Positions 4,524 to 62,994 of a DNA stretch of 64,000 nt are shown here, in pieces. Where the stretch lies: assembly GCA_903819895.1 (NCBI GenBank), contig CAIJFH010000027.1:1675-65674 (forward strand), in the 5' to 3' direction. The notes beneath the pieces were generated by a model. It saw only the letters and a list, made by a program, of their open reading frames with translations. It ran no database searches and was not told where the DNA came from. How positions within the stretch are numbered: the stretch's first letter is position 1; every line of letters starts with the position of its first letter. This DNA is from Candidatus Adlerbacteria bacterium (GTDB lineage: Bacteria; Patescibacteriota; Minisyncoccia; Phycocordibacterales; SBAW01). A program made the translations under genes and the position numbers.

Positions 4524-4590
4524 GTAAAAAGATACTACCACACCGCACTATTGCGTGCAACCAACTACATAGGACGGACCTATGTAGTGG

Positions 4591-6987: not shown

Positions 6988-8079
6988 TTACTTCTTCTCT
7001 CCGGTGAAGGCGAGTGCCATGCGCATCTCTTTGGGGTCAAAGAGCGAGATGGTGAATGGGTAGCGCTTGCCGAGCTCGAGTGCGGCGCTGAGTTTCTCCT
7101 CGCTGCCAAACTCCGACACGTGCACCAAGCCAGCAATGCCCTCCTCTATAGACGCGAGCGCGCCGTGCTTGTTGAACTTGATGACCACGCCCTCGACCTT
7201 GTCGCCCTTGTTGTATTTCTTTGCGGCTTCGCTCCACGGGTTGCTCTTGAGCGCCTTGACCGACAGCGACACTTTGCCATCTTTGATGTCGATAATCTTG
7301 ACCTGCGTCTTGTCGCCAACTTTAAAGAAGTGGCGCGGGTCGTCCACCAAGCCCCAGTCGATCTCCGAGATATGCACCAAGCCCTCGAGGCCTTCCTGCA
7401 GTTTAACAAAGACGCCAAAGTCGACCATGCCGGTCACCTCGCCGTCGACGACGTCGCCAACCTGGTAGTTTTGCACGATCTGCTTCTTCTCTTTATCATC
7501 CGAGCCCTTCTCCGAGAAGATAAGCTTGCCCTCCTTCGGCGTTGCCGAGATGAGCATCACCGGCAACTTTTGCCCGACAAACTTGCGCAGCTCATCGAGG
7601 ATGCGATCCTTATCGCCGTCGGACACGCGCGGGTAGTGCTCGGCTTTGAGCTGCGACGCAGGAAGGAAGCCGACGATACCCTGCCACTCGAGCATGAGCC
7701 CGCCCTTGTTTGCCTCCTTGACCACCAACTCGAAGAGCTGCTTGTTTTTGACCGCGTCCTCGGCCTCGGCCCAGAGCACCGCTTGACGTGCCTCCTTGAG
7801 CGAGAGCTCGATGTAGCCGTCTTTGGTGTCGGTCGCGATGACCTTTGCCTGCACCGTGTCGCCGACGTTGGTGCGCTTAATCACCTCGCGGGCGTTCATG
7901 TACTCGCGGCCATAAATAACGCCCGTACCAAACGGCGGCAGGTCGATGTACAACTTCGCGCGGTCCAGAGCCAAGACCTTGCCCTCGATAATGTCACCCG
8001 CTTTGGGTGGCATCGGTGCCTGCTCCGCAAACGCGGTCATGAGACGCACAACACCATCCTTCTCGATTGTTTCTGTCAT
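6988..8079 (-). CDS. rpsA: 30S ribosomal protein S1 (short 4-domain form)
   Basis: Repeated S1 domains are present (GDIIEGKV..., GDVVDGEVTGMVDFGVFVKL, GDKVEGVVIKFNKHGALASI). A TTGCTA-17-TATAGT promoter and a structured leader lie upstream on the minus strand. Confidence 0.9.
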   Translation of the reverse strand: MTETIEKDGVVRLMTAFAEQAPMPPKAGDIIEGKVLALDRAKLYIDLPPFGTGVIYGREYMNAREVIKRTNVGDTVQAKVIATDTKDGYIELSLKEARQAVLWAEAEDAVKNKQLFELVVKEANKGGLMLEWQGIVGFLPASQLKAEHYPRVSDGDKDRILDELRKFVGQKLPVMLISATPKEGKLIFSEKGSDDKEKKQIVQNYQVGDVVDGEVTGMVDFGVFVKLQEGLEGLVHISEIDWGLVDDPRHFFKVGDKTQVKIIDIKDGKVSLSVKALKSNPWSEAAKKYNKGDKVEGVVIKFNKHGALASIEEGIAGLVHVSEFGSEEKLSAALELGKRYPFTISLFDPKEMRMALAFTGEKK

Positions 8080-8300: not shown

Positions 8301-8385
8301 GAGTGGGGGAGCCGAAGCTCCCCCGTAGACGGTTGATGGAGCTTGATTTGGTCGGGAAATCCCGACCCTTCGTCGTTGACTGCCG

Positions 8386-9807: not shown

Positions 9808-10134
9808 ATGAAAAAATATTTGCATCATATAAAATCCAAGCCGACCCACGAGCGCCGCGAGCATGCGATGCGTGTTGCGGGCGTGGTGACCGCGCTGGTC
9901 TTTTTTGGGTGGATCAGTACACTGGGTGTGCGCTTGGCGATCCACAGCTCGGCTGCGTCGGTCGCGAGTGCAGGTGATTCGACCGCGAGTGGCGACAGTA
10001 CGAGCGCCAACCAAACGCAGTTGGCGGGCGTTGCCGCGGCAGACCAGACAACCAACACCGCGCAAGGTGGAGGCGACACCGACCCAAACGCCAACCATCT
10101 GGAGGTGGCGACAACCAGCGTCTTTGCGCAGTAG
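9808..10134 (+). CDS. Hypothetical small membrane-anchored protein
   Basis: The ORF has an N-terminal TM helix (VAGVVTALVFFGWISTLGV) and a Ser/Ala/Thr-rich tail. There is no recognisable domain. Confidence 0.45.
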   Translation: MKKYLHHIKSKPTHERREHAMRVAGVVTALVFFGWISTLGVRLAIHSSAASVASAGDSTASGDSTSANQTQLAGVAAADQTTNTAQGGGDTDPNANHLEVATTSVFAQ

Positions 10135-15690: not shown

Positions 15691-15768
15691 CGCACCCTTA
15701 GCTCAGTTGGTAGAGCACACCCTTCACACGGGTGGGGTCGCAGGTTCGAGTCCTGCAGGGTGCACCAC
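15691..15768 (+). tRNA. tRNA-Val (anticodon CAC), CCA encoded
   Basis: The acceptor GCACCCT/AGGGTGC, D-arm GCTCAGTTGGTAGAGC, anticodon stem-loop CACCC-TTCACAC-GGGTG, T-arm GCAGGTTCGAGTCCTGC and a 3' ACCA are present. By my reading there are 2 extra nt between the D-stem and anticodon stem, possibly a transcription artefact of mine. Confidence 0.8.
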
Positions 15769-15914
15769 CCTGAGCAAGCAACCTGCGTTGCTTGCGTCAG
15801 GACGAGAAAGGCGGAGCATGTCGAGCCCAGCAGGGCGAGGCAGCGAGCCGGGGTCGCGGTCGAGGATGCGCGACGGCGCAGACGAGAACCGTGACCGAGT
15901 CGTTAGCAATAGTG

Positions 15915-15985
15915 CGGGCTGTAGTATACCGGTAGTACGCGCGCTTCGGGTGCGTGAAGACCGGGTTCGATTCCCGGCAGCCCGA
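15915..15985 (+). tRNA. tRNA-Pro (anticodon CGG), CCA not encoded
   Basis: The acceptor CGGGCTG/CAGCCCG, anticodon stem-loop CGCGC-TTCGGGT-GCGTG (G37) and T-arm CCGGGTTCGATTCCCGG are present. Confidence 0.75.
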
Positions 15986-16013
15986 CAAGTAGTGTAGAGT
16001 AAGTGAGACCGAG

Positions 16014-16055
16014 TTCGACCCGCCTGCCGGCGGGCAGGTTCCCGGCAGCCCGACA
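16014..16055 (+). terminator. Hairpin plus T-run after tRNA-Pro; contains second copy of tRNA-Pro 3' end (TTCCCGGCAGCCCGACA)
   Basis: The hairpin CTGCCGG-cgggcaggttc-CCGGCAG is followed by CCCGACAGAG and then TTTTTTT (16049-16055). Confidence 0.4.
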
Positions 16056-16102
16056 GAGTTTTTTTGTGTTACATTAATACGCGTGCCACATCGGCACGTT
16101 AG

Positions 16103-16173
16103 GGCCCATAGTTAAGTGGTAAAACGCTGCATTCGCATTGCAGAGGCGCGAGTCCGATTCTCGCTGGGTCCAC
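16103..16173 (+). tRNA. tRNA-Ala (anticodon CGC), G3:U70 present, CCA not encoded
   Basis: The acceptor GGGCCCA/TGGGTCC has a G3-U70 wobble. The anticodon stem-loop is CTGCA-TTCGCAT-TGCAG and the T-arm is GCGAGTCCGATTCTCGC. Confidence 0.8.
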
Positions 16174-25342: not shown

Positions 25343-25363
25343 TACGGAGGACGGACCTCCGTA
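25343..25363. repeat. Palindromic intergenic hairpin family with core GGACGGACC (copy after atpD; other copies 4565-4587, 42713-42733, 43423-43441, 49526-49546, 60637-60655; degenerate 45184-45202, 61659-61679, 62172-62188)
   Basis: The form is TACGGA-GGACGGACC-TCCGTA. The arms co-vary (CTACATA/TATGTAG in two copies) while the 9-nt core is constant in either orientation. Confidence 0.7.
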
Positions 25364-41735: not shown

Positions 41736-41832
41736 TCATTCTTGCCACATATAAAAAGAGAAGCGCCGAGGTTTAACCTCGGCGCTGATTGCTGCGTCCT
41801 TCTGTTTGAGATACTAGCGTGCGTATGGCTCG

Positions 41833-42420: not shown

Positions 42421-42757
42421 GTGTTTTCTCCATAGTGTGTGTTGCTGTCAAAGATCTGCCGGAATACAAAAAACCCTCGGGCTTTGTATCCAGCCGAGGG
42501 GTTTCTAGGAGTGTGGTTTTCTAGTTCGATTACGAGGTCATACAAAATCCACGGCTGTATACAAGCTGGCTCTGCTCCTGCTTGTCGGAGACGACAGCAA
42601 AGAGCGCCCGGGTAGTCGGGGCAATAGCGCACGTATACATCTGGTGGACTGCGTATTTCATACTCTTACAAACTACACAAATATAGCCGTTGTGTCAATA
42701 CCTCGCAAAATACATAGGACGGACCTATGTAGACGGAGAATTTGCTATACTGCCGCT

Positions 42758-43417
42758 ATGGAAATCGTATCAACCACTATGACCACCGAGGAACTGATAC
42801 AAATTGTCTGGGACTACCAGTTGATGCATCAAGAGTTGTGCAAGGCGGATGCTCTTGTCGTGCTCGGCAATCACGATGTCCAAGTTGCTGAGTATGCAGC
42901 CAAGCTCTATCTCGACGGATGGGCGCCGCTACTCGTCTTTTCGGGCGGGTCGGGGAGGTCAACCGAGCAGTGGCAAAAAACTGAGGCCGAGATATTTACC
43001 AACGCAGCTGTGCGACTTGGTGTGCCCGCGGAGAAGATCCTGCTCGAGCGTAAAGCCGCCAACACAGGCGAGAATATTTTGTTTACGAAGGCGCTACTTG
43101 AAGAGAAGCGCATCGAGGTGCGCCAGATTATCGTCGTACAAAAGCCCTACATGGAGCGTCGTTCGTATGCTACCTGCAAAAAGCTTTGGCCCGAGGTCGA
43201 CGTCGTGGTCACCTCGCCGCCGATAGCGTGCAAGGACTATGCGCCCGCGGGCGTGTCGCGCGACCAATGGGTGAGTATTATGGTCGGCGACCTTCAGCGC
43301 ATCAAACTCTATGCCGAAAAAGGATTTATGATCCCGCAAGAAATCCCCGCAGACGTCTGGGCAGCGTATGAGGAACTTGTCGCGCGCGGCTATGACGCAC
43401 ATGTACTAAAAGAGTAG
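42758..43417 (+). CDS. DUF218/YdcF-like (ElyC/SanA family) protein
   Basis: ALVVLGNHD...LVFSGG...GVPAEKILLERKAANTGEN is the YdcF signature. The start is ATG 42758 (ORF from 42644). Confidence 0.75.
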   Translation: MEIVSTTMTTEELIQIVWDYQLMHQELCKADALVVLGNHDVQVAEYAAKLYLDGWAPLLVFSGGSGRSTEQWQKTEAEIFTNAAVRLGVPAEKILLERKAANTGENILFTKALLEEKRIEVRQIIVVQKPYMERRSYATCKKLWPEVDVVVTSPPIACKDYAPAGVSRDQWVSIMVGDLQRIKLYAEKGFMIPQEIPADVWAAYEELVARGYDAHVLKE

Positions 43418-43488
43418 AGAATACGGAGGTCCGTCCTCCGTGGTGTGAGGAGGGTAGGAAAACTGGTGTATCGTGGTATACTGTTTGT

Positions 43489-43692
43489 ATGATTACTGCG
43501 GGATTTAAAAACGTCGTTTGGCGGGAAGGGGGGCAGTATGTTGCCCAGTCCTTAAACGTGGACGTATCAAGTTTTGGAAATACACGAACAGAGGCGCTGT
43601 CTAACCTCAAAGAGGCACTCGAGTTGTATTTTGAAGACGCTCCCGCTGGCGCTGCGTCTTCGGTCGAAGAGCCCGAGATTGTGTCCATCTAA
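43489..43692 (+). CDS. hicB: HicB-family antitoxin (UPF0150)
   Basis: GGQYVAQSLNVDVSSFGNTRTEALSNLKEALELYFED resembles the HicB N-terminal domain. Confidence 0.65.
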   Translation: MITAGFKNVVWREGGQYVAQSLNVDVSSFGNTRTEALSNLKEALELYFEDAPAGAASSVEEPEIVSI

Positions 43693-43696
43693 GTGT

Positions 43697-43909
43697 ATGT
43701 CGAGGTTGCACTCCTCAAACCATATTATTTCTGTGTTAGAGCAAAACGACTTCTATTTTGTTTCGCAAAAAGGAAGTCATGCAAAGTATCGCAAAGAAAG
43801 CAATGGCAAGACACTCACCGTCATTGTGCCAGTAGACAAAAAAGAAATCCCTCGCGGCACATTCCGATCAATATTGCGGCAATCGCAACTAACACCACAG
43901 GATTTTTAA
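43697..43909 (+). CDS. hicA: HicA-family mRNA interferase toxin
   Basis: QKGSHAKYRKESNGKTLTVIVPVDKKEIPRGTFRSILRQSQL matches the HicA (YcfA-like) motif. The ATG lies 5 nt after the hicB stop. Confidence 0.7.
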   Translation: MSRLHSSNHIISVLEQNDFYFVSQKGSHAKYRKESNGKTLTVIVPVDKKEIPRGTFRSILRQSQLTPQDF

Positions 43910-43917
43910 AAACTATT

Positions 43918-44358
43918 ATGAACCAGGACAAGAAGTTTGAGATACGCTGTCGCGGAGTGATTGTGCACGAGGGGAAGTTGCTTGTAGTCAAACACACACA
44001 TGACACCACGTTTGCCGCGCTCCCGGGCGGGCACTTGGAGTTTGGCGAGGATGTGCAGGAGTGCCTGCGACGCGAGCTGGTCGAGGAACTTGGTATCGAA
44101 CCCGAGATTGGACGATTGTTGTATGTCAACACATATATCGAGTCCTACGGCGCACAGCCAGTGGAGTTCTTCTTCGAGATTCTAAACGGCGACGCATATG
44201 CAAAAGGGAGCAATGTTGCAGCGACGCATGCACACGAGCTTGCGGCAGTTGTTTGGATGCACCCTTCCGACGACATCCTACTGCGCCCAACCCAGTTTGC
44301 CGATGACTTTCGCGCAGGGGAATTGTTTGCAGACGAAGTGCGGTATATCAAGAAGTAA
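43918..44358 (+). CDS. NUDIX hydrolase
   Basis: The Nudix box GGHLEFGEDVQECLRRELVEELGI is present. The start is ATG 43918 (ORF from 43693). Confidence 0.8.
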   Translation: MNQDKKFEIRCRGVIVHEGKLLVVKHTHDTTFAALPGGHLEFGEDVQECLRRELVEELGIEPEIGRLLYVNTYIESYGAQPVEFFFEILNGDAYAKGSNVAATHAHELAAVVWMHPSDDILLRPTQFADDFRAGELFADEVRYIKK

Positions 44359-44381
44359 GAAAATGAGCTCCCAATACTTTT

Positions 44382-45143
44382 ATGATTGGTGAAAGTCAGA
44401 CAGAAAAACACCTGTTAAATGAAATTTTGGCAGATTTTGTATTCTTTACAAATCCTGAGCTCATGAAAGATGAATTTCGCCTACTGGTCGATACTTCTTC
44501 CGCAGATATTTCCCAAATAGAGAAATACCGCACCCTTCTTTCAAATATCCAATATGCATGGCAGAAAACCTTGAAGTATAGCATTTATTTTGCAGAGTTT
44601 TATCCGCCAGAGTCTAGGATAGAAAAAATTGAGGCGCTGAATCACCACACACATGCATATTTGCAGGATGCTGATACTTTGAAAAACAAAATAGAAATCT
44701 TTTTACAAACACTCAAAAAGGATTTAACTAAAACTGCATTAAACAAAGATGACGTGCGAGATTTTGTTGATGCTGGGATAGAAAAAACATACGGAGTCTT
44801 CGAGAACATTCTTAAACATCGACACGCTCATGTCCACTATGGTATGCGTTTTGTGGATGGCGATTTACTTAAAGCTGAGAATGCTCAAGTGACTCTGGTG
44901 ATGTTTGAAAAACCACCTTTTAACTCAATGTTGAATCCAGATCGTAAACCTGAACTTGTTGCAAAACTAGAAAAACAAAAAGATGAGTCTTTTGAGGTTG
45001 CCAAGGTGCGCTGGGTATCGACCGCTCAGAGAAACGATGAACAGATATCTGGCTTTCTGCGCGCTCTCCTGTTTGCATTACGGCCCAGTTTCTATGAGTT
45101 TCTTGGCATTCGTTCTGTGAAAGAGTTAATTATCTCCGAATAG
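44382..45143 (+). CDS. Hypothetical AT-rich protein with HEPN-like Rx4HxH motif (KHRHAHVH)
   Basis: GC is about 38%. There is no clear family. The R-x4-H motif is consistent with a HEPN fold but weak. Confidence 0.45.
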   Translation: MIGESQTEKHLLNEILADFVFFTNPELMKDEFRLLVDTSSADISQIEKYRTLLSNIQYAWQKTLKYSIYFAEFYPPESRIEKIEALNHHTHAYLQDADTLKNKIEIFLQTLKKDLTKTALNKDDVRDFVDAGIEKTYGVFENILKHRHAHVHYGMRFVDGDLLKAENAQVTLVMFEKPPFNSMLNPDRKPELVAKLEKQKDESFEVAKVRWVSTAQRNDEQISGFLRALLFALRPSFYEFLGIRSVKELIISE

Positions 45144-45150
45144 AATGACA

Positions 45151-45171
45151 ATCCAAGGGTAACCCTTGGAT
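45151..45171. repeat. Palindromic intergenic element ATCCAAGGGTAACCCTTGGAT (copy 1 of 4; others at 45653-45673, 46538-46556, 62933-62952)
   Basis: The same 19-21 nt perfect palindrome (stem TCCAAGGG, loop TAA) recurs immediately 3' of stop codons. Confidence 0.7.
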
Positions 45172-45221
45172 TGTAGCGACCATGGATGTCCGTCCTCTGT
45201 AGAGTTTGCTATACTGCTGTT

Positions 45222-45650
45222 ATGGATGAAGAATATATGCGTCGTGCTATTGCGCAGGCGAAACAGTCCAAGCAATATATTGGCTGCGGCGTAGTGATAG
45301 TAAAAGACGGGCACATTCTCGCAGAGACATACAACAAACAAAAAGAGTCATGCGATGCCACTGCGCATGCGGAGATTTTAGCAATACGCGCTGCGGGTGG
45401 GCAGCTTGGGCAAAAAGATCTGGATGGTTGTACCGTCTACTGCACCTGCGAGCCATGCACGATGTGTCTGTCGGCAATCATCTTTGCAAAAGTTCCACGA
45501 CTGGTTTATGGCACCTCGATGCAGGAGACATTTCCCGATAACTTGCCAATTACGCTCACCAGCCAAGAGTTGCTCGCGCACGCGCCCCATCATATCGACA
45601 TTGTTTCAGGGTACTTGCACGACGAATGCGCGACATTGTTGAGCAAATAG
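45222..45650 (+). CDS. Cytidine/deoxycytidylate deaminase-family protein (TadA-like)
   Basis: HAEILAI and CEPCTMC zinc ligand motifs are present. The start is ATG 45222 (ORF from 45186). Confidence 0.8.
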   Translation: MDEEYMRRAIAQAKQSKQYIGCGVVIVKDGHILAETYNKQKESCDATAHAEILAIRAAGGQLGQKDLDGCTVYCTCEPCTMCLSAIIFAKVPRLVYGTSMQETFPDNLPITLTSQELLAHAPHHIDIVSGYLHDECATLLSK

Positions 45651-45701
45651 TCATCCAAGGGTAACCCTTGGATTGTGATAAAATACGCCCAGTTGTAGTA
45701 T

Positions 45702-46022
45702 GTGGTTATGGGGAAGTATAAAGTCGTGGTAACTGTTCCAGTAAGTCATGCCAATATGGTGCGTGAGGCGATTGGGCAAGCTGGCGGTGGCAGAGTCGGC
45801 AACTACTCTTTTTGTAGTTTTTCGGTGCGCGGTGTTGGGCGTTTTAAGCCGAACGAACATGCGCGTCCGTTCGTGGGCGGGACTGGATTGCTGGAGGAGG
45901 TCGAGGAAGAGCGGATAGAGGTAACTTGCGATGCTGCCGAGCTTGATGCGGTAGTTGCTGCAATCAAACGTGTGCATCCGTACGAAGAAGTTGTGCTGGA
46001 TGTGTATGAATTAAATTCATGA
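45702..46022 (+). CDS. Small NIF3-C-terminal-like/PII-like fold protein, function unknown
   Basis: GNYSFCSF...GRFKPNEHARPFVGGTG...RIEVTCDAAELDAVVAAIKRVHPYEEVVLDVYEL resembles the NIF3 C-terminal segment. Confidence 0.5.
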   Translation: MVMGKYKVVVTVPVSHANMVREAIGQAGGGRVGNYSFCSFSVRGVGRFKPNEHARPFVGGTGLLEEVEEERIEVTCDAAELDAVVAAIKRVHPYEEVVLDVYELNS

Positions 46023-46528
46023 GAATCACCATCATCGGACATTGTGGGAGTGGGAAGAGTACGCTCGCGGCACAAATCAGCGAGAAGTTGCATATCCCGT
46101 ACCTCCACCTAGACCGATTGTGGTTTGAGGCGGGTGGGCACGTCGTGCCCAAGAGTGACACCGTTGCTCGAAAGAAGATGGACGAGACGATTAGGGAGCG
46201 TGCGCAAGAGTTCGTACGACAAGATGCGTGGGTGTCCGACGGCTGGCACGGAACGATACAGCCCGTCATTGTCGAGCGTGCCGACCAGATTGTCTTTCTC
46301 GACATCCCGCTATGGCGACGAGTGTGGAATCATATCTATCGCATATTTTTTACGACACGACACGCAGAACTTACAAAGTGGCAGGATTTCAAATTTACGT
46401 GGCAGATTATCCGGCGCACCTACCGACACGGTCCCGCGATGCGCGCCTTTATCCACGAACATGCCGACAAGGTGGTCACCCTTCGCAACTATGCTGCAGT
46501 AAAGCGATATGTGGCGGGGTTGCAGTAA
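46019..46528 (+). CDS. P-loop NTPase (adenylate-kinase-like/topology modulation protein-like)
   Basis: The Walker A sequence IIGHCGSGKSTLA is present. Confidence 0.65.
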   Translation: MRITIIGHCGSGKSTLAAQISEKLHIPYLHLDRLWFEAGGHVVPKSDTVARKKMDETIRERAQEFVRQDAWVSDGWHGTIQPVIVERADQIVFLDIPLWRRVWNHIYRIFFTTRHAELTKWQDFKFTWQIIRRTYRHGPAMRAFIHEHADKVVTLRNYAAVKRYVAGLQ

Positions 46529-46627
46529 TTGAGCTGTACAAGGGTAACCCTTGGATTATACAAAGGACTGTCCTCTGTACGCAAAAAGGTAATGCGCTAA
46601 ACATCTTCACTGTGCTATATTTCCATC

Positions 46628-47236
46628 ATGCATATATTTTTTATCCGGCACGGCGAGACGACGGGTGACGTAGAGAATCGCTACGGCGGCACATACGACG
46701 ACCATTTGTCCGAAAAGGGGGTCGAGCAAGTGGGCGCACTTGCCGAGGCGCTGCGCGGCAAGGGGATACAAACAATTTTCTCTAGCCCGCTCATTCGCGC
46801 ACAAGAAACATCTCAGCTACTTGCTGGTGCGCTCGACTGCCCAGTACAAACCATTGCCGACTTGCGCGAGCGCAATCAGTACAGTTTTTTGTCGGGCATG
46901 AAAAAGGACGAGGCGCTAGAGCGCTACCCACAGGAGGTCGAGCTGCTCAAAAATCGATACAACACCATTGCTGGTGCGGAGTCGTACGAGGATTTTAGTG
47001 CGCGCATTGCAGAGGTGTTTCGATCAATTGCAAGCACTGTCGAGCATGAGTCCATCGCGATGGTCTCTCACGGTGGGCCGGTGCGCGTTTTGTTTCGCGA
47101 CATTCTACAATGGGGCGAGATGAAAGAGATTGGCGACTGCGCGTTTGTCGAATTACAAAAAACGGGCGACACCTATTCCTACATCACCTCGAGCGGATTG
47201 GTTCCCGCATTTGGTTTTGAGGAGCACACAGTGTAA
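46628..47236 (+). CDS. Histidine phosphatase family protein (phosphoglycerate mutase-like), paralog 1
   Basis: FIRHGET and the catalytic His (SHGG) are present. Confidence 0.8.
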   Translation: MHIFFIRHGETTGDVENRYGGTYDDHLSEKGVEQVGALAEALRGKGIQTIFSSPLIRAQETSQLLAGALDCPVQTIADLRERNQYSFLSGMKKDEALERYPQEVELLKNRYNTIAGAESYEDFSARIAEVFRSIASTVEHESIAMVSHGGPVRVLFRDILQWGEMKEIGDCAFVELQKTGDTYSYITSSGLVPAFGFEEHTV

Positions 47237-47314
47237 TTACCAACACGTATACAAAGGACTGTCCTTGGTAGTGATGTGGTAGTCAAACCGGCGGATTTCA
47301 GTTACTATGCGGCG

Positions 47315-48415
47315 ATGGCGCTACGCATCGGCATTGTTGGGCTCCCCAATGTGGGCAAGTCGACACTCTTTCAAGCACTCACTAAAAAGAGTGTCTTGGT
47401 GGCCAATTACCCTTTTGCAACCATCGACCCATCGGTTGGTGTTGTTGCTGTGCCCGACGAGCGGCTCGACCAGTTGGCAGCATTTTCCGAATCGGCAAAA
47501 AAGGTGCCCGCCGCTGTCGAGTTTGTCGACATTGCGGGGCTGGTCAAGGGTGCCTCCGAGGGCGAGGGGCTTGGCAACCAGTTTCTCTCGCATATCCGCG
47601 AGGTAGATGCGATCGCCCACATGGTGCGCATTTTTGACAACACGGACATTATGCATGTTGATGGCGAGGTCGAGCCGCTGCGCGATATCGAGACCATCAA
47701 CCTGGAGCTGATTTTGGCCGACCTCGAGACGGTCGAGAAGCGTCTATCATCCCTGGAGCGCGAGGTGAAGAGGGGTAATAAAGAGATTGCCACCGAGCAC
47801 GCGGCGATTCAAAAAGCACACGAGATGCTCCGCGACAGCAAGCTCGCACGTACTGCCGACTACACACCCGAGGAGCTACTCTCCATCAAAGGTCTCCACT
47901 TGTTGACCATGAAGCCGATGCTGTATGTGCTCAATCGCGAGGCGGGTGGGCATAATATCGACGAGCAGCGCGACGGCCGCTGGGAGAAAGTGCAGCATTT
48001 TTTTGAGACAACCGGCGCGTCGTACACCTTTGTGGATGCAAATATCGAAAATGAGTTGCGCGACCTGCACACCGAGGACAAAGCGACCTTTCGTCAAGAG
48101 TATGGCGTCGAGGATGACGGGGTCAATGGGCTGATCCGCGCGGGCTATGCGCTCTTGGGGTTGATGAGTTTTTTTACCACCGGCCCCGATGAGACGCGCG
48201 CATGGACAATCCCCGTTGGCTCGACTGCGCCCGAGGCAGGTGCGGCGATCCACACCGATTTTAAAGATAAATTTATCCGCGCCGAGGTGATCAACTGGCA
48301 GCAACTCATCCAATCGGGCTCCTATGCCAAAGCGCGCGAGCAGGGGTTGGTGCGCACCGAGGGCAAAGAATATGTTGTCCACAATGGCGATGTGATGGAA
48401 TTTTTGCACTCATAG
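47315..48415 (+). CDS. ychF: Ribosome-binding ATPase YchF
   Basis: IGIVGLPNVGKSTLF, the TGS domain and the C-terminus GDVMEFLHS are present. The start is ATG 47315. Confidence 0.92.
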   Translation: MALRIGIVGLPNVGKSTLFQALTKKSVLVANYPFATIDPSVGVVAVPDERLDQLAAFSESAKKVPAAVEFVDIAGLVKGASEGEGLGNQFLSHIREVDAIAHMVRIFDNTDIMHVDGEVEPLRDIETINLELILADLETVEKRLSSLEREVKRGNKEIATEHAAIQKAHEMLRDSKLARTADYTPEELLSIKGLHLLTMKPMLYVLNREAGGHNIDEQRDGRWEKVQHFFETTGASYTFVDANIENELRDLHTEDKATFRQEYGVEDDGVNGLIRAGYALLGLMSFFTTGPDETRAWTIPVGSTAPEAGAAIHTDFKDKFIRAEVINWQQLIQSGSYAKAREQGLVRTEGKEYVVHNGDVMEFLHS

Positions 48416-48496
48416 CAACACACTATATTCGTTTTTTGAAATGCAAAAGGTGTGGTATGCTAAGTTGACTTTAGCACTAACGCATCCTCTATCTCT

Positions 48497-49519
48497 ATGG
48501 ATAAACCAAAGACGACGCCGAAGGATTTCTTTTTGTGGGCAGGGGTAGTCGCCGCGCTCTATGTCAGCGTATTTAACTACATCGCGCTCGTGTGGGATTA
48601 CATCAACTACGCCTTCCCAACGCCAACGACCGCAACGTACTACGTCGACCCCTACCAAAACGGCATCAGTTGGGAGATGGCGACGCTCATCGTGCTCTCG
48701 CCCGTCTGTTTTGGCTTGTTGTTGCTGATCCGTCGCGACATTGTGCGCGACCCGGTGCGGCGCGAGTTGTGGGTGCGGCGCTGGGCGCTGTTTCTCACCC
48801 TGTTTATCGCGGGCGCAACAGCGGTGGTCGACCTCATCTACGTTTTGTACGCATTCCTCAACGGCACCGATGTGACCGCACAGTTTTTGCTCAAGGCGTT
48901 GGTGGTGCTGCTCGTTGCAGCGATGGTCTTTATGCACTTTATCGCCGATCTGTGGAACTATTGGGAGCAGTATCCGCGCCGCAACCGCTCGGTTGTTGTC
49001 GCCGTGGGCGCGCTGGTGTTGGTGACTATTGTTGCAGGGTTCTTTATTGTCGGCACACCACAGCAAGCGCGGACCTACCGCCAAGATGCACAGCGCGTGT
49101 CCGACCTGCAAACCATCCAGTATCAAATCACCAACTATTGGCAGCACACGCAGACACTCCCCACAACCCTGGCCGAGGTGCGCGACCCACTTTCGGGTGT
49201 CACCATCCCTGTCGACCCGGCAACCGGCGCGCCGTATGTCTACCAAGCAATGGGCGCAACCTCGTTTAAAATCTGCGCGACCTTTGGTGCCGTAAGCCAG
49301 CAGGGGCAGACATACCCCAACAGCCCGTATTCATTGCAATCTGCGCCGATTGCGCAACCAACAGCAACAGTACCAGCCGAGCCCGCGGGCCTTGGCGGCG
49401 GCGCAGAACTAACTGACACCTGGCAGCATGCAGCAGGGGAGGTGTGCTTTGCTCGCACCATCAACCCCAAGTTGTATCCACCGATTACCACCCAAGCCGC
49501 GATGCCAGCGGGGAAGTAA
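48497..49519 (+). CDS. Membrane protein with C-terminal pilin/pseudopilin-like domain (hypothetical)
   Basis: There are 4-5 TM helices. The C-terminus RQDAQRVSDLQTIQYQITNYW...LPTTLAEVRDP...PVDPATGAPYVYQ resembles a GspG/type IV pilin core. The call is inferential. Confidence 0.5.
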   Translation: MDKPKTTPKDFFLWAGVVAALYVSVFNYIALVWDYINYAFPTPTTATYYVDPYQNGISWEMATLIVLSPVCFGLLLLIRRDIVRDPVRRELWVRRWALFLTLFIAGATAVVDLIYVLYAFLNGTDVTAQFLLKALVVLLVAAMVFMHFIADLWNYWEQYPRRNRSVVVAVGALVLVTIVAGFFIVGTPQQARTYRQDAQRVSDLQTIQYQITNYWQHTQTLPTTLAEVRDPLSGVTIPVDPATGAPYVYQAMGATSFKICATFGAVSQQGQTYPNSPYSLQSAPIAQPTATVPAEPAGLGGGAELTDTWQHAAGEVCFARTINPKLYPPITTQAAMPAGK

Positions 49520-49558
49520 CATCACTACGGAGGTCCGTCCTCCGTATCTTGCATATAT

Positions 49559-52048
49559 ATGGAACAATACGATCACAAAAAAATAGAAAAAAAGTGGCAG
49601 CAGCGGTGGCGGGACACCAAGTTGTATCGCACTACCGAGGATTCGTCTAAGCCGAAGTCGTATGTGCTCGACATGTTCCCGTACCCATCCGGCGAGGGGC
49701 TGCATGTTGGTCACCCCAAAGGATACATCGCGACCGACATTTACTCGCGCTACAAGCGGATGCAGGGGCACAATGTACTGCACCCAATGGGCTGGGATGC
49801 GTTTGGTTTGCCTGCCGAAAATTACGCACTCAAAAACAAAGTCCACCCGCGTGTCGCGGTCGAGAAGAACATTGCCACGTTTAAAGACCAACTCGCGCAC
49901 ATTGGCTTTAATTATGATTGGGAGCGTGAGATCTCGACCACCGACCCGGCGTTTTACAAATGGACGCAATGGATTTTTTTGCAGATGTATAAAAAAGGGC
50001 TGGCGTTCCAATCCAACGAGCCGATTAACTGGTGCCCATCGTGCAAGACAGGGCTTGCCAACGAAGATCTTGACGGCAACACATGCGAGCGCTGTGGCAC
50101 CGTTGTCGAGAAAAAGCGCTTGCCGCAGTGGGTGCTCAAAATTACCGACTATGCCGACCGCATGCTCGCCGACCTCGACCTGCTCGACTGGCCCGAGCAC
50201 ATTAAAACCGCGCAGCGCAACTGGATCGGCCGCAGCGAGGGCGCAGAGATTGATTTTGCTATCGTTGGTTCAGATACAAAAATAAAAGTATTTACCACGC
50301 GCCCGGATACGCTGTTTGGTGCAACGTACATGGTGCTTGCGCCAGAGCACTCACTCGTCTCTTCACTCCTCAACGATACTGCGTCGGCAGTATCGAACAA
50401 GAAAGAGGTCGCAGCATATGTTGCGCAAGCCGCAAAAAAGACCGAGATTGAGCGTGGAGGCGATAAAGAAAAAACAGGCGTCGAGCTGCAAGGAATCAAG
50501 GCAATCAACCCAGCAAACAAAAAAGAAATTCCGATTTTTGTTGCCGATTATGTACTCGGCGGCTATGGCACAGGCGCCATCATGGCTGTGCCCGCGCACG
50601 ACGAACGCGATGCTGCTTTTGCTCGAGCCTACAAATTGCAAGCTAAAGCTGTGATAATTCCAAGAAATCTTGAAGTCCTGCACTCTTATGTGCCCAAAGG
50701 TCTGCCAGATAAAACAGATTCACAATATGACTCTGCACTAAGAGATCTTTCTTTGAAATATCTAGTGCACCCAATGGTGTTAGACGGAACTCTTATAAAC
50801 TCTGATCAATTTGATGGATTGTCAGTGGAGGAAGCAAAAAAGAAAATCACCGAGTTTGTTGGCGGGAAGATAGCGACGACGTACAAACTCAAGGACTGGG
50901 TGTTTTCGCGGCAGCGATACTGGGGCGAACCAATCCCGATCATCCACTGCCCAACACACGGTGCGGTCGCGGTGCCCGAGGAGCAGCTGCCGGTCTTGCT
51001 GCCCAACGTGGAGTCATATGAACCAAGCGGCACTGGCGAGTCGCCACTGGCGAATATGACTGAGTGGGTCAATACAACCTGCCCAACCTGCGGCGGCCCC
51101 GCCAAGCGCGAGACAAACACGATGCCGCAGTGGGCGGGCTCGTCGTGGTACTACCTGCGCTTTATGGATCCAAACAACAACACAGCGCTGGTTGGCAAAG
51201 ACAAAGAAAAATACTGGGCACCCGTTGATGTCTATGTCGGTGGCGACCACGCCGTGCGTCATCTCATTTATGCACGCTTTTGGCATAAATTTCTCTACGA
51301 TATTGGCACGGTGAGCACGGTTGAGCCCTTTGCGCGCCTCGAGTTCTTGGGTTTTATCCTTGCCGAAGACGGCCGCAAGATGAGCAAGCGCTACGGCAAC
51401 GTGATCAACCCAACTGAGGTGATTGCAAACTATGGCGCGGACGCATTTCGCATCTACGAGATGTTTATGGGTCCGTTTGAGAACACGGTCGCGTGGAACA
51501 TGGCGTCGATTGCAGGCACGACCCGTTTTGTCGAACGAGCGTGGGCGATACAAGACATGGTCACCAAGGATACATCTCCCGAATTGGAGGTGGTGTTACA
51601 TCAATCCATCAAGAAAGTGAGCGAGGACATCGAGGCGTTTAAATTTAATACCGCGGTGAGCCAACTCATGATACTGCTTAACGCGATAGAAAAGCAGGGT
51701 AGCATCGGGCGCGAGCAGTGGGACGTATGTCTGCGTCTTTTGGCACCACTTGCACCACACACCACCGAGGAGCTGTGGGAGAAATTGGGGCACACCGAGT
51801 CAATCCATGTTGCACCGTGGCCCACCTATGACCCAGCAAAGTTGGTGGCGAGTGTGGCAAAGGTGGCAGTGCAGGTCAACGGGAAGGTGCGCGCGGTGCT
51901 TGAGTTATCCACAACCGCGAGCGAGACGGAGGCGCTTGCAGCAGCGCGTGCCGAGCCCACAATCACCAAGTGGCTCAGCGAAGGGCGGGAGACAAAGGCG
52001 GTGTATGTGCCGGGCAAAATTATCAGCTTCGCGGTAGAGCCCCAGTAG
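49559..52048 (+). CDS. leuS: Leucyl-tRNA synthetase
   Basis: PYPSGEGLHVGHPKGY (HIGH) and KMSKR are present. The product is 829 aa. Confidence 0.95.
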   Translation: MEQYDHKKIEKKWQQRWRDTKLYRTTEDSSKPKSYVLDMFPYPSGEGLHVGHPKGYIATDIYSRYKRMQGHNVLHPMGWDAFGLPAENYALKNKVHPRVAVEKNIATFKDQLAHIGFNYDWEREISTTDPAFYKWTQWIFLQMYKKGLAFQSNEPINWCPSCKTGLANEDLDGNTCERCGTVVEKKRLPQWVLKITDYADRMLADLDLLDWPEHIKTAQRNWIGRSEGAEIDFAIVGSDTKIKVFTTRPDTLFGATYMVLAPEHSLVSSLLNDTASAVSNKKEVAAYVAQAAKKTEIERGGDKEKTGVELQGIKAINPANKKEIPIFVADYVLGGYGTGAIMAVPAHDERDAAFARAYKLQAKAVIIPRNLEVLHSYVPKGLPDKTDSQYDSALRDLSLKYLVHPMVLDGTLINSDQFDGLSVEEAKKKITEFVGGKIATTYKLKDWVFSRQRYWGEPIPIIHCPTHGAVAVPEEQLPVLLPNVESYEPSGTGESPLANMTEWVNTTCPTCGGPAKRETNTMPQWAGSSWYYLRFMDPNNNTALVGKDKEKYWAPVDVYVGGDHAVRHLIYARFWHKFLYDIGTVSTVEPFARLEFLGFILAEDGRKMSKRYGNVINPTEVIANYGADAFRIYEMFMGPFENTVAWNMASIAGTTRFVERAWAIQDMVTKDTSPELEVVLHQSIKKVSEDIEAFKFNTAVSQLMILLNAIEKQGSIGREQWDVCLRLLAPLAPHTTEELWEKLGHTESIHVAPWPTYDPAKLVASVAKVAVQVNGKVRAVLELSTTASETEALAAARAEPTITKWLSEGRETKAVYVPGKIISFAVEPQ

Positions 52049-59873: not shown

Positions 59874-60746
59874 ATGAGCTCCTACTATAAACCACATCGC
59901 AACACGGGCTGGAACTATGGTGGCCGCAATTGGCGCCTCTCGCGCAGCAAAATCGCGCTCTTTGTCGAGTGCGCACGTTGCTTCTATATCGACAACAAGC
60001 TCGGCACGGCGCGGCCACCAGGGTTCCCCTTCAATCTCAACTCGGCGGTCGACGCATTGCTCAAGAAAGAGTTCGATATACACCGCACTGCTGCATCGTC
60101 ACACCCGATTATGCAGCAGTATGGCGTCGACGCGGTGCCGTACCAGCATGCCGAGATGGATATTTGGCGCGAGAACTTTAAAGGCATCGAGTTTCGCCAT
60201 CTGCCAACGGGCTTTACTATCGCGGGCGCGGTCGACGATGTGTGGGTCAACCCCCAAGGCGAGCTGATTGTCGTCGACTACAAATCGACCAGCAAGGATG
60301 AAAAAATCGATGCGCTCGACGCCGACTGGCACGACGGCTACAAGCGGCAGATGGAGACGTACCAATGGTTGCTGCGCCAGCGCGGGTTTAAGGTCTCCAA
60401 CACGGGCTACTTTGTCTATGCCAACGCGAGCAAAGATCGCCCCGCGTTCGACGGCAAGCTGGAGTTTGACCTCACGCTGATCCCGCATGTCGGCAATACC
60501 GACTGGATCGAACCAACCATTGCCAAACTCAAACTCTGCCTCGACAGCAACGCGCTCCCCGCCGCTGCACCCGACTGCGACTACTGCACCTACCGCCAAG
60601 CCGTCGAGGATGATTTGCGCGAACACGAGTCAAAACACGGAGGACGGACCTCCGTATCAAAAGAAGTAGAACCCACGCCAGCACCAGCCACAAAACCAGT
60701 AAGCAAAAAATCCAACAGCAGCGAACCAACGGGGCAGCTATTCTAA
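59874..60746 (+). CDS. Cas4/RecB-like PD-(D/E)xK nuclease with four-Cys cluster (orphan, no CRISPR context)
   Basis: N-terminal ECARCFY, the ELIVVDYKSTS core (D, E, K) and C-terminal PDCDYCTY are present. A palindromic GGACGGACC hairpin lies inside the 3' end (60637-60655), so the true stop may be earlier or the tail is a low-complexity extension. Confidence 0.65.
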   Translation: MSSYYKPHRNTGWNYGGRNWRLSRSKIALFVECARCFYIDNKLGTARPPGFPFNLNSAVDALLKKEFDIHRTAASSHPIMQQYGVDAVPYQHAEMDIWRENFKGIEFRHLPTGFTIAGAVDDVWVNPQGELIVVDYKSTSKDEKIDALDADWHDGYKRQMETYQWLLRQRGFKVSNTGYFVYANASKDRPAFDGKLEFDLTLIPHVGNTDWIEPTIAKLKLCLDSNALPAAAPDCDYCTYRQAVEDDLREHESKHGGRTSVSKEVEPTPAPATKPVSKKSNSSEPTGQLF

Positions 60747-60752
60747 CTACCC

Positions 60753-61406
60753 ATGGTTGAAACATCAACAGAAAAAATCATTTACCTTGTCCGACACGGG
60801 CAAACTCATGGGAACGTCGACCCAGTGTTTCAAGGTGTCGACTCAACGCTCAATACGACAGGACGCGAGCAAGCGGAACAAGTAGCGCAACGTGTTGCAA
60901 GATTATCTTTCGATACATTGGTTGCAAGCCCGCGCATGCGCACAAGGGAGACAGCTGAGATTATCGCCCGAGCAACTGGCAAAACTCCGGAATATGCGGA
61001 CGTGTTTGTCGAACGCACCAAACCAACACGCGTCGATGGCAGACCATACACAGACACCGAAGCAAATGCACTCTGGCAGTTATGGGAACAGAGCATCTAT
61101 ACACCGGGCATGCGCGCAGAGGATGGCGAAAATTTTGATGACATTATTGCACGTGCGGACAAGGCGCTCGATTTTCTCCAAAACCGATTCGAACAAGCGC
61201 TCGTGGTCGTAACACATGGACACTTTTTGCGCACACTTGTTGCCCGCATTTTGCTCGGCAGTTCTCTTACTGGCGATAATTTTAGACACTTCCAAGCGAG
61301 CATCAAAACAGAAAATACGGGTATCACTGTATTGAAGTATGACGCAGCACGAACAGAAGCGCCTTGGCGTTTGTGGATCTATAACGACCATGCACATCTT
61401 GGATAA
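60753..61406 (+). CDS. Histidine phosphatase family protein, paralog 2
   Basis: LVRHGQT and VVTHGHF are present. Confidence 0.8.
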   Translation: MVETSTEKIIYLVRHGQTHGNVDPVFQGVDSTLNTTGREQAEQVAQRVARLSFDTLVASPRMRTRETAEIIARATGKTPEYADVFVERTKPTRVDGRPYTDTEANALWQLWEQSIYTPGMRAEDGENFDDIIARADKALDFLQNRFEQALVVVTHGHFLRTLVARILLGSSLTGDNFRHFQASIKTENTGITVLKYDAARTEAPWRLWIYNDHAHLG

Positions 61407-61665
61407 ATCAACATCTTTCGCCGAGCGCGTCCGCGCGGTTGTGGCGCAAATTCCGAAAGGCGAGACAATGACATACCAGCAAGTGGCAACGAAGGCGGGG
61501 AACGCAAACGCTGCGCGAGCGGTTGGCACAGTGATGTCAAAGAACTTTGACCCGAACATCCCGTGCCACCGGGTCGTCCGCTCCGACGGCACACCTGGTG
61601 GGTACAACCGCGGCGGGAGTACTCGCAAAGCAGCACTCCTCCAAGCCGAACACTCGCACACATAG
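61390..61665 (+). CDS. Methylated-DNA-protein-cysteine methyltransferase DNA-binding domain protein (Ogt C-terminal domain only)
   Basis: The PCHRVV active-site motif and the ETMTYQQVA helix are present. The start ATG 61390 overlaps the previous gene by 17 nt. Confidence 0.75.
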   Translation: MHILDKSTSFAERVRAVVAQIPKGETMTYQQVATKAGNANAARAVGTVMSKNFDPNIPCHRVVRSDGTPGGYNRGGSTRKAALLQAEHSHT

Positions 61666-61691
61666 GTCCGTCCTTTGTGCTGCGAAACAAC

Positions 61692-62126
61692 TTACTCGCC
61701 TGACATCTCTGAAAACGCGACACCTTGTTTGATGAGGGGGAGTGCAGCGGCGACTTCTTCAACAACGTTTGTACCAAGCTCGGCGAGCGTCGCCCAGCGC
61801 AAGTCGCCGATTTTCTCTGGCTCGTTGTTGACGGGCTCGCCCTGCCACTTGGTGGTGGTGAAAAAATACTCAACAAGAATGTCCTCGCGATACAGCACAT
61901 GCACAAAACGTAGGTCGTCCGGAGCAATATCGATACCAACCTCCTCTTTTGCCTCGCGAATCATCGCCTCGGTTGGGAGCTCGCCCAGGTCGACATGTCC
62001 TGCGGGCAAGCTATAAAAACCCTCGTGGTAGTCGGTATTTTTCCGCTGTGCAAAAAGATATGTACCATCTTTCTCCAGCACCAAATACACCGCCACCCGC
62101 ACCCGGAGTCGCTCGGTTGTTGTCAT
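61692..62126 (-). CDS. NUDIX hydrolase
   Basis: The Nudix box GHVDLGELPTEAMIREAKEEVGI is present. Confidence 0.8.
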   Translation of the reverse strand: MTTTERLRVRVAVYLVLEKDGTYLFAQRKNTDYHEGFYSLPAGHVDLGELPTEAMIREAKEEVGIDIAPDDLRFVHVLYREDILVEYFFTTTKWQGEPVNNEPEKIGDLRWATLAELGTNVVEEVAAALPLIKQGVAFSEMSGE

Positions 62127-62209
62127 ACTTCAAAGATACCACATATCCATATTGCGACTATATGTCCGTCCTCTGTGCCCCTCTATACCAACTCTTGTAT
62201 ACTAACTGC

Positions 62210-62929
62210 ATGGATGCCAAGGATGTGAAGATGGAGGAGTCATGGAAACGGCGGCTGGCGGGGGAGTTTGAGAAGCCGTACTTTGCCGAGCTGTCGGCGT
62301 TTGTGCGGCAGGAGTACAAAAACGAGGTGGTGTATCCGCCGCCGAAATATATCTTCCGCGCGTTTGACTTGTGCCCGTTCGAGCAGGTGCAGGTCGTGAT
62401 ACTCGGGCAGGATCCGTACCACGGGCCAAAGCAGGCAAACGGCTTGTGCTTCGCGGTCGACGAGGGGACGAAACTCCCGCCCTCGCTGCAAAATATTTTT
62501 AAAGAGATTGCGAGCGAGTATTCAGCAACAGCGTCGGGAGGTGAAACCTCCCAACAAACGAAAGAAGAGCGCGAGGCGCGTGCCCTGCGTAGCTTTAGCG
62601 AAGTAGGGGTGCAGGGCGTATTACTTTTAAATGCGACGCTCACGGTGCGTGCGCATATGGCGGGCTCGCATCAGGGCAAGGGCTGGGAGGAGTTTACCGA
62701 CGCGGCGGTTGCGGCGCTCTCGCAGGAGCGCGAGCATCTCGTCTTTATGCTGTGGGGCAACTACGCAAAAGCAAAAGGCGCACACATCGACCGCACGAAA
62801 CACCTCGTACTCGAAGCGGCGCACCCATCGCCATTCTCTGCCTACAACGGATTCTTCGGCTGCGGACATTTCAAAAAAGCCAACGACTATTTGGTCGCGC
62901 ATGGCAAAAAGCCGATTGATTGGCTGTAA
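62210..62929 (+). CDS. ung: Uracil-DNA glycosylase (family 1)
   Basis: VVILGQDPYHG, GVLLLN and HPSPF are present. The start is ATG 62210 (the ORF extension from 61949 overlaps the Nudix gene). Confidence 0.88.
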   Translation: MDAKDVKMEESWKRRLAGEFEKPYFAELSAFVRQEYKNEVVYPPPKYIFRAFDLCPFEQVQVVILGQDPYHGPKQANGLCFAVDEGTKLPPSLQNIFKEIASEYSATASGGETSQQTKEEREARALRSFSEVGVQGVLLLNATLTVRAHMAGSHQGKGWEEFTDAAVAALSQEREHLVFMLWGNYAKAKGAHIDRTKHLVLEAAHPSPFSAYNGFFGCGHFKKANDYLVAHGKKPIDWL

Positions 62930-62994
62930 CTCATCCAAGGGTAACCCTTGGACAGCCGCTTTTTATATAGAGAGTTCTTCGGTATACTGCCCAC

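Follow-up and report, generated by a model that had tools for sequence, protein, structure and literature searches.

A short palindrome behind genes of a Candidatus Adlerbacteria genome as a probable REP/RAYT-type mobile repeat of Patescibacteria

Four palindromes behind stop codons

The window analyzed here, a 64,000-nt stretch of contig CAIJFH010000027.1 from a Candidatus Adlerbacteria bacterium (G+C, 55%; coordinates refer to the whole window, with its first letter as position 1), carries the short palindrome TCCAAGGGTAACCCTTGGA in three exact copies and one copy with a single mismatch. Probably, these four palindromes are copies of a repetitive extragenic palindromic (REP) element of the TCCAAGGGTWACCCTTGGA dialect, a mobile hairpin repeat of the type that goes with a REP-associated tyrosine transposase (RAYT). 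A repeat of this type is apparently undescribed for Patescibacteria. An earlier note on this DNA had pointed to the recurrence of the palindrome after stop codons, and this observation is borne out, since eight strand-matches to TCCAAGGGTAACCCTTGGA with at most three mismatches are present in the window, against 0.01 expected in shuffled sequences. The copies that it listed are real, with coordinates that were off by about one base.

Copy 1 (45148 to 45174, + strand) is a 27-nt perfect palindrome, ACAATCCAAGGGTAACCCTTGGATTGT, with 13-nt arms around a central A. It contains the exact TCCAAGGGTAACCCTTGGA at 45152 to 45170, starts 4 nt past the TAG stop (45141 to 45143) of a 253-aa open reading frame (ORF), and ends about 48 nt before the ATG (45222) of a deaminase gene. 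The TAG stop of that gene (45648 to 45650) is followed after 2 nt by copy 2 (45653 to 45673, + strand), a 21-nt perfect palindrome, ATCCAAGGGTAACCCTTGGAT, with 10-nt arms and the exact TCCAAGGGTAACCCTTGGA at 45654 to 45672, located 34 nt before the next ATG (45708). Copy 3 (46537 to 46555, + strand) is the degenerate one, TACAAGGGTAACCCTTGGA, with one mismatch (TACAAGGG...) and perfect 7-nt arms that span 15 nt at 46539 to 46553; the 19-mer begins 8 nt and the perfect palindrome 10 nt behind the TAA stop (46526 to 46528) of a P-loop kinase-like gene. Copy 4 (62934 to 62952, + strand), a 19-nt perfect palindrome identical to TCCAAGGGTAACCCTTGGA with 9-nt arms, is found 4 nt past the TAA stop (62927 to 62929) of a uracil-DNA glycosylase (UDG) gene and 42 nt before the ATG (62995) of an M3 peptidase gene. 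All four are odd palindromes around a single central base, which is an A on the + strand in every case, the sense strand of the upstream gene. The gap between stop codon and palindrome is tight (4, 2, 10, and 4 nt for copies 1 to 4, always behind + strand genes), and the next start codon follows at widely varying distances, about 34 to 74 nt past the palindrome end.

The 8-bp stem with a TAA loop that had been described for each copy is the folded form of these odd palindromes and applies to all but copy 3, of which the RNA hairpin is weaker, with a stem of only 6 bp (z −0.4 for a 50-nt stretch). RNA folds of the stretches holding copies 1, 2, and 4 gave −18.9, −14.2, and −15.0 kcal/mol (z −4.7, −3.9, and −3.3), the value for copy 4 including a second, neighboring hairpin, and DNA folds of the window copies ranged from −12.4 to −5.0 kcal/mol. 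A scan of the whole window against Rfam 15 at the gathering threshold returned three tRNAs only and no match for the palindromes. In being short (19 to 27 nt), hairpin forming, and repeated, with an identical 19-mer in three of the four, the copies resemble REPs. By its LeuS, which shares 66 to 72% identity with proteins named from Adlerbacteria, Paceibacterota, Minisyncoccia, and the Parcubacteria group, the organism is a Patescibacterium of Paceibacteria type rather than a member of the Saccharibacteria. The same species was recovered, with the same copies, in several lake assemblies and in an NCBI metagenome-assembled genome (GCA_903934455.1). The three clustered copies are identical in three other assemblies of the species (L136 to L138; retrieved loci are designated by L numbers) and copy 4 is identical in two further ones (L149 and L150), and no presence/absence polymorphism was seen among these assemblies at the cluster or at the UDG/peptidase junction, respectively.

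Distribution in Patescibacteria

An exact scan for the 18-mer CCAAGGGTAACCCTTGGA in one genome per prokaryotic species (596 Gb) yielded 55 loci, of which 51 belong to 26 Patescibacteria assemblies, labeled as Saccharibacteria, Kaiser-, Adler-, Zambryski-, and Paceibacteria, and Parcubacteria, and 4 are singletons in other phyla. By our own arithmetic, about 17 matches to the 18-mer are expected by chance in 596 Gb on two strands; hence, there is nothing remarkable about the matches outside the candidate phyla radiation (CPR), and those within it represent a large excess. The 13-nt core had no copy in 80 loci (780 kb) of relatives with a YchF protein that is 60 to 75% identical, and palindromes with CCAAGG/CCTTGG arms like those of the TCCAAGGGTAACCCTTGGA family were likewise not found in these ychF-anchored loci. 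Judged by sequence comparison, an element so deeply conserved and yet so patchily present does not look like a simple host signal passed on vertically.

From the scanned assemblies with matches, 8-kb pieces were fetched, and the genes in these foreign loci were called as simple ORFs. Conservation in the 59 oriented copies is symmetric, with T at −9, A at +9, and W at both ±10 and ±11. Of these copies, 53 have the T at −9, although it lies outside the 18-mer search pattern. The arms show 63% pairing at ±10, 53% at ±11, and background levels farther out, while individual copies lengthen the stem with complementary sequence of their own, giving arms of up to 21 nt. A scan of viral contigs returned two identical matches in phage coding sequence, both without the T at −9, which we took as chance.

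The earlier note had staked its case on the palindrome also occurring near gene ends outside the window, and this is what we find. Of 64 distinct Patescibacteria copies, 34 are located at most 45 nt behind the stop codon of a long ORF (at least 100 codons, by crude ORF calls), 5 of them between convergent stops; 14 are inside long ORFs and 16 elsewhere. In-frame copies were found in seven genes verified by Pfam, encoding TGT, MurJ, RNase HII, PheT, inositol monophosphatase, MurD, and SufS. Depending on which of three frames is used, the palindrome is read as QGLPL, PRVTLG, or SKG(N/Y)PW, the fourth possibility leading to a stop codon. The copies in TGT and SufS occupy loop positions and amount to small net insertions relative to solved homologs, and in MurD a 41-nt palindrome is translated as HNPFQGLPLERVV within a poorly aligned loop. 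Local density can be higher than in the window, as in L050 with nine copies in 8 kb. L040 contains a tandem array (2687 to 2790) with a 41-nt unit that consists of one palindrome copy and the spacer GATAGATTGGGCAAAAAGTTATCA.

A RAYT-like gene beside the palindrome

At L051, three palindrome copies surround a 220-aa ORF that matches Pfam Y1_Tnp. Using this ORF as a tblastn query, homologs (48 to 57% identity) adjoining the palindrome were found in L025, L019, and L050, which makes four independent loci including L051. The protein contains the motifs YHIYNRG, CLMPNHFHLL (the HUH motif, NHFH), and YIHLNP (with the tyrosine), and 75 homologs show little or no variation at residues H79, H81, and Y139. 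Its sole NCBIfam match is REP_Tyr_transpos (REP-associated tyrosine transposase, equivalog NF047646). In a fold comparison with the PDB, its AlphaFold2 (AF2) model (pLDDT, 93.6) came closest to the REP-associated tyrosine transposase of E. coli in complex with a REP hairpin (4ER8_A; E, 2e-6; TM, 0.61 on the target); the IS200/IS605 TnpAs of ISDra2, IS608, and IS200 ranked next. Compared with the 165-residue 4ER8 chain, the protein of about 220 aa carries a C-terminal extension. Pfam, motifs, and the AF2 model agree in that the protein has a Y1/HUH fold, including the HUH motif and the catalytic tyrosine. The family is large, with at least 7,894 clusters at 90% identity at E ≤ 1e-10, and 344 or 6,104 representatives at 50% identity at E ≤ 1e-30 or E ≤ 1e-10, respectively. 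Where the source names an organism, the homolog derives from a Patescibacterium, and one is called RayT by JGI.

Palindromes in inverted orientation flank the gene in all nine RAYT-like loci that we inspected. They are exactly of the TCCAAGGGTAACCCTTGGA type in two, L051, with AATCCAAGGGTAACCCTTGGAC at 2190 to 2208 (central A) and the inverse TATCCAAGGGTTACCCTTGGATAA at 2879 to 2897 (central T), and L025, with exact copies at 1224 and 1939. The others have co-varying dialects, and of these, L142, L139, L145, L147, and L143 were fetched via the RAYT protein alone, independent of the palindrome. In L142, CCAAGGG-ATG/CAT-CCCTTGG is present on both sides of the gene (upstream at 9948 to 9972), inside it, and dispersed at 15112 and 15354. 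L139 has CCAAGGACTCCCCTTGG and CCAAGGACWGTCCTTGG on both sides and inside, with dispersed copies at 8339 and 8369, and L145 has CCAAAGTCTCACTTTGG on both sides (downstream at 3357 to 3377) as well as inside. CATAGGGTTACCCTATG is located on both sides of the L147 gene (9970 to 9988 and 10656 to 10698) and inside, TCAAGGGGAGTCCTTGA / CCATCAAGGGGAGTCCTTGATGG on both sides of and inside the L019 gene, and L143 has 50-nt double palindromes on both sides. The L050 dialect, CCGAGGGTTACCCTCGG / GTCCGAGGGTTACCCTCGGAC, differs from the window sequence by a compensated A>G / T>C change and occurs in two-hairpin composites after four genes in 8 kb. Each 69-nt composite (281 to 359, 1067 to 1145, 4857 to 4935, and 7869 to 7947), with its hairpins separated by GGATTTTATGGCTCTACCACGGTGG, is located directly behind a + strand gene, and one pair flanks the RAYT gene, an arrangement reminiscent of bacterial interspersed mosaic elements. 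The RAYT genes of L142 and L143 share the same neighborhood (RecA ... FtsK ... PG_binding protein, RAYT, LCAT-like), and their products are 54% identical, yet their dialects differ. A chromosomally fixed Y1 gene together with an inverted flanking and dispersed hairpin of matched specificity is the combination that defines REP-RAYT systems.

In eight of the nine loci, a copy or remnant of the cognate palindrome is found within the RAYT ORF itself, in the codons for IQGLPLD. The internal copy of L051 (2393 to 2415) reads ATC CAA GGG TTA CCC TTG GAT, and that of L142 (10156 to 10178) has ATG as the loop codon (IQGMPLD), as do the dispersed copies of this locus. Internal copies in the dialect of the locus are also present in L145 (2843 to 2863), L147 (10165 to 10181), L139 (within 4747 to 5400), and L019. 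They have decayed in L025 and L050, and L143 has none. Changes in the internal copy go along with changes in the flanking and the dispersed copies. The 120 best homologs have the peptide IQG-x-PLD, where x can be L, M, V, Y, S, H, or another residue; the variable residue corresponds to the loop codon, and the arms are kept. The Leu codon at the arm position is TTG in all seven of the nine genes that have Leu there. The segment is confidently structured in the AF2 model (pLDDT 95, residues 51 to 60). Possibly, the internal copy may serve as a master or autoregulatory copy.

A second palindrome family, which outnumbers the TCCAAGGGTAACCCTTGGA copies in the window, has the GGAC-core consensus TAC(A/G)(T/G)AGG-ACGGA/TCCGT-CCT(A/C)(T/C)GTA. 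Hairpins of this family, in both loop orientations, are located at 4564 to 4588, 25343 to 25363, 42711 to 42731, 43423 to 43441, 49526 to 49546, 60637 to 60655, and 61664 to 61674, several of them directly behind stop codons, with weaker copies at 45186 to 45196, 46563 to 46573, and 62162 to 62172. As the earlier note had stated, GGAC-core sequences follow copies 1 and 3 of the palindrome; the former (45186 to 45196) has one mismatch to AGGACGGACCT, and the latter, at about 46563, reads GGACTGTCC. The exact GGAC core was confined to this species among all fetched loci. Its arms (ACATAGG...CCTATGT) match those of the dialect found around and within the L147 RAYT gene and also in L142; from this sequence match, the GGAC-core hairpins probably represent another REP dialect belonging to the same system. 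Separately, a perfect palindrome with 12-nt arms, AGCGCCGAGGTTTAACCTCGGCGCT, is present at 41762 to 41786, with CCGAGG/CCTCGG arms similar to the dialects of L050 and L143.

Interpretation and known systems

The suggestion in the earlier note that the palindrome might be a small mobile repeat is supported by its occurrence in 26 Patescibacteria assemblies, its absence from 780 kb of relatives, the flanked RAYT genes, and the in-frame copies. Apart from its basis in E. coli biochemistry, the mechanism that we envisage draws on general knowledge of the IS200/IS605 TnpA family. The hairpin would extrude on single-stranded DNA, probably at the replication fork, and RAYT would bind the stem-loop and cut and rejoin beside it, using the HUH-bound metal and the tyrosine. 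This would copy or move the element, such that RAYT recognizes and spreads its hairpin. The proposal builds on the published biochemistry of E. coli TnpA-REP (PMC3479197). Copies would persist where they do little harm, in the narrow strip between a stop codon and the next promoter, which is short in this genome (TGCTATAYT boxes are found 6 nt before several ATGs). The window copies may be served in trans by a RAYT encoded elsewhere in the genome or may be relics. Once transcribed behind the upstream gene, the hairpin might stabilize the 3′ end of the mRNA, terminate transcription in part, or slow read-through; the first two roles have been argued for E. coli REPs (PMC12306157; bioRxiv 10.64898/2026.03.23.713779).

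Several observations weigh against a REP/RAYT-type repeat. A RAYT homolog was not detected by tblastn in the 64-kb window or the 10 kb upstream (L151), and for this genome, therefore, the link consists only of the sequence identity of the repeat. The RAYT proteins score 31 to 45 bits, against a curated NF047646 cutoff of 80, which, from sequence, marks a distant clade rather than the characterized proteobacterial RAYTs. The position table of the 59 oriented copies shows no conserved asymmetric flank such as the GTAG tetranucleotide at the 5′ hairpin foot in REPs of enterobacteria and pseudomonads. Copy number appears low, at one to eight exact copies per assembly in the 8-kb pieces and four in this 64 kb, against hundreds for classical REPs; the window and about 10 kb upstream in the same genome together hold the same four copies, three of them clustered. 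No empty (pre-insertion) site was found among the 80 relatives and the same-species assemblies, so that mobility is inferred rather than observed; a comparison of orthologous junctions in the 80 ychF-anchored metagenome loci offered no empty site, as none of them keeps the small genes. Finally, the central base on the sense strand, where a single upstream gene could be assigned, is A in 23 copies and T in 6 (crude ORF calls, the four window copies included), which could point to selection at the RNA level rather than mere tolerance. IS200/IS605 elements insert on one replication strand, and by analogy the bias could stem from such insertion or from selection on the transcript.

A wider reading is that a REP-RAYT system spans the phylum Patescibacteria, with one copy of its repeat located in the transposase's own frame, that the double constraint of protein and hairpin froze the 19-mer across classes, and that the window copies are outposts of this system. 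We advance it tentatively, its chances falling somewhat short of even; the GGAC-core hairpins of the window would probably be outposts as well. Neither the exact sequence nor any link of RAYT or REP with CPR/Patescibacteria was found in the literature searched, which is no proof of novelty.

The rival that survives best, though we consider it unlikely, is a host terminator or a hairpin stabilizing mRNA 3′ ends that is kept by selection, read by a host RNA-binding or termination factor, and not mobile. The earlier note had offered a variant, a terminator or processing signal shared by this operon, which finds no support in that form: the element is not operon specific, and no window copy is followed by a T-run on the sense strand. 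Like Rho-independent terminators, the palindromes are GC-rich stem-loops directly behind stops, and T-runs often follow in AT-rich relatives. All window copies are in the sense orientation, 2 to 10 nt behind stops, with stable RNA hairpins; many copies in AT-rich relatives have A-runs before and T-runs after them (L008, L041, and L045), and the bias toward a central A on the sense strand (23 versus 6) would also fit. However, no sense-strand T-tract follows any window copy, the TTTTT behind copy 4 being 8 nt past the stem, and a scan of 43000 to 50000 gave no sense-strand terminator call for the copies there, the antisense strand of copy 1 being flagged. Unlike terminators, the stem is invariant across distant genomes, and copies occur within coding sequences in three frames and around and inside RAYT genes, with dialects that match the RAYT. 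Some are located near gene starts, and those of L019 and L023 appear, by eye, to lie between divergent promoter-like sequences. Three related genomes have retained the hairpin of a common site upstream of fusA, as expected for a selected signal, but its central base is flipped in two of them. Likewise, the 780 kb of relatives without any copy must also terminate transcription.

The genes around the window copies are small and varied. They comprise genes for a NUDIX protein, a 253-aa protein of unknown function, a cytidine/dCMP deaminase, an unassigned 104-aa ORF product, a weakly matching P-loop kinase-like protein, His_Phos_1, YchF, UDG, and an M3 peptidase; the deaminase and P-loop kinase labels of the earlier note stand accordingly, and the ORF that it called NIF3-like has no Pfam hit. 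The run of small genes upstream of ychF (43693 to 47236: NUDIX, unknown, deaminase, unknown, kinase-like, His_Phos) adjoins ychF in none of the 80 relatives (L056 to L135), among which the spacing from ychF to DUF5671/leuS varies by several kilobases. From this comparison, the run looks like a variable region of these genomes. Elsewhere, a 91-aa gene (PF01035, DNA_binding_1, methyltransferase type) is called between His_Phos and NUDIX genes in other assemblies of the species (L149, 8230 to 8505; window, 61406 to 61949) and is uncalled in the gene listing of the species' 170-kb contig, a difference that rests on gene calls. Three tRNA genes are found within 500 bp at 15692 to 16172.

With three copies packed into 1.4 kb, each preceded by one small gene or by a pair of genes, and small genes that are not syntenic with ychF in the 80 relatives, the palindromes might be taken for attC-like recombination sites of a gene-cassette array upstream of ychF, and L050, where small genes are each trailed by a two-hairpin composite, would suit this idea. 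We nonetheless regard it as very unlikely. The element measures 19 to 27 nt rather than 57 to 141 nt and lacks GTTRRRY/RYYYAAC core sites, GGGTAAC/GTTACCC being no match to them. It goes with a Y1/HUH transposase rather than a tyrosine recombinase, no integrase association appeared in the returned gene lists with Pfam hits, and the array is the same in three other assemblies of the species.

Slightly more doubtful still is an operator for a dimeric DNA-binding regulator of nucleotide-salvage and repair genes (deaminase, kinase, UDG, and NUDIX). A perfect odd-centered palindrome upstream of promoter-like TGCTATACT boxes and thematically related neighbors would be in line with such a site. An operator would not explain, however, why the distance to the next start varies widely (about 34 to 74 nt) and that to the upstream stop is tight, nor why copies lie inside ORFs. 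The neighbors in other genomes are unrelated (fusA, TGT, MurD, SufS, and others), without a consistent regulon, and the variable complementary extensions of the arms are needless in a protein-DNA duplex site. The promoter-like box TGCTATA(C/T)T, followed after 6 nt by ATG, occurs at 656, 13394, 42743, 45207, and 46613 on the + strand, five times against 0.24 expected in shuffles; an extended −10-like box so close to the ATG suggests leaderless or nearly leaderless mRNAs in this organism. The right arm of the palindrome (TTGGA) was considered as a −35 box and dropped, given its unsuitable spacing to the −10-like boxes in the window.

Least credible is a DNA uptake sequence for a competence machinery, with hairpins behind genes like the Neisseria uptake sequence pairs: Patescibacteria depend on DNA uptake, and the sequence is conserved throughout a lineage and placed behind genes, but its density is far too low and patchy (none in 780 kb of relatives and one to eight exact copies per assembly), and a link to RAYT with matching dialects is unexpected for an uptake signal.

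Among known systems, Rickettsia palindromic elements (RPEs) share with the repeat described here that palindromes are tolerated in frame and add a few residues in loops. To our knowledge, RPEs are about 100 to 150 bp long and have no known dedicated transposase. The two are unrelated in sequence, and all four window copies lie outside genes. As with the subterminal hairpins of IS200/IS605 elements and their derivatives that resemble miniature inverted-repeat transposable elements (palindrome-associated transposable elements, PATEs), a Y1/HUH enzyme would read a hairpin on single-stranded DNA. In contrast to IS200/IS605, there are no differing imperfect hairpins at the left and right ends and no tnpB, the repeat is dispersed alone, and in the one related pair examined (L142/L143), the gene seems to keep a fixed, syntenic place.

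REP/RAYT systems are known mainly from Proteobacteria, and whether they are selfish, domesticated, or both is a matter of continuing debate. A classical REP is confined to one species or genus. Here, in contrast, an exact 19-mer is conserved across the classes of a phylum. The likeness to REPs and REPINs (hairpin-forming REP doublets) with their RAYT (TnpA-REP) in E. coli, Pseudomonas, and Stenotrophomonas (PMC2817692, PMC3116915, PMC3479197) is nevertheless extensive. In both cases, a short GC-rich hairpin repeat is mostly extragenic and close behind genes, a Y1/HUH gene is flanked by the inverted repeat, dialects match their own RAYT, and the RAYT gene is syntenic in related genomes (L142/L143), with a fold closest to 4ER8. 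Unlike REPs, the Patescibacteria element is a perfect palindrome without a GTAG-like foot and with few copies seen per genome; a cognate repeat resides inside the RAYT ORF (IQGLPLD codons), many copies are in frame in housekeeping genes, and the protein of about 220 aa has a C-terminal extension and falls below the NCBIfam RAYT cutoff. Our analysis would extend REP/RAYT systems to the very reduced genomes of Patescibacteria, in which every intergenic base is under pressure. What is unusual is the phylum-wide sequence of the repeat, its embedding in the transposase coding sequence with matching dialects, and the in-frame colonization of essential genes. With a protein of some 220 aa and an oligonucleotide of 19 nt, the system could provide a tractable test bed for the co-evolution of a hairpin-reading enzyme and its DNA target. 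For annotation, the repeat would explain recurrent QGLPL / PRVTLG / SKGNPW inserts in CPR proteins, and it would account for hairpins behind CPR genes that might otherwise be mistaken for terminators or operators.

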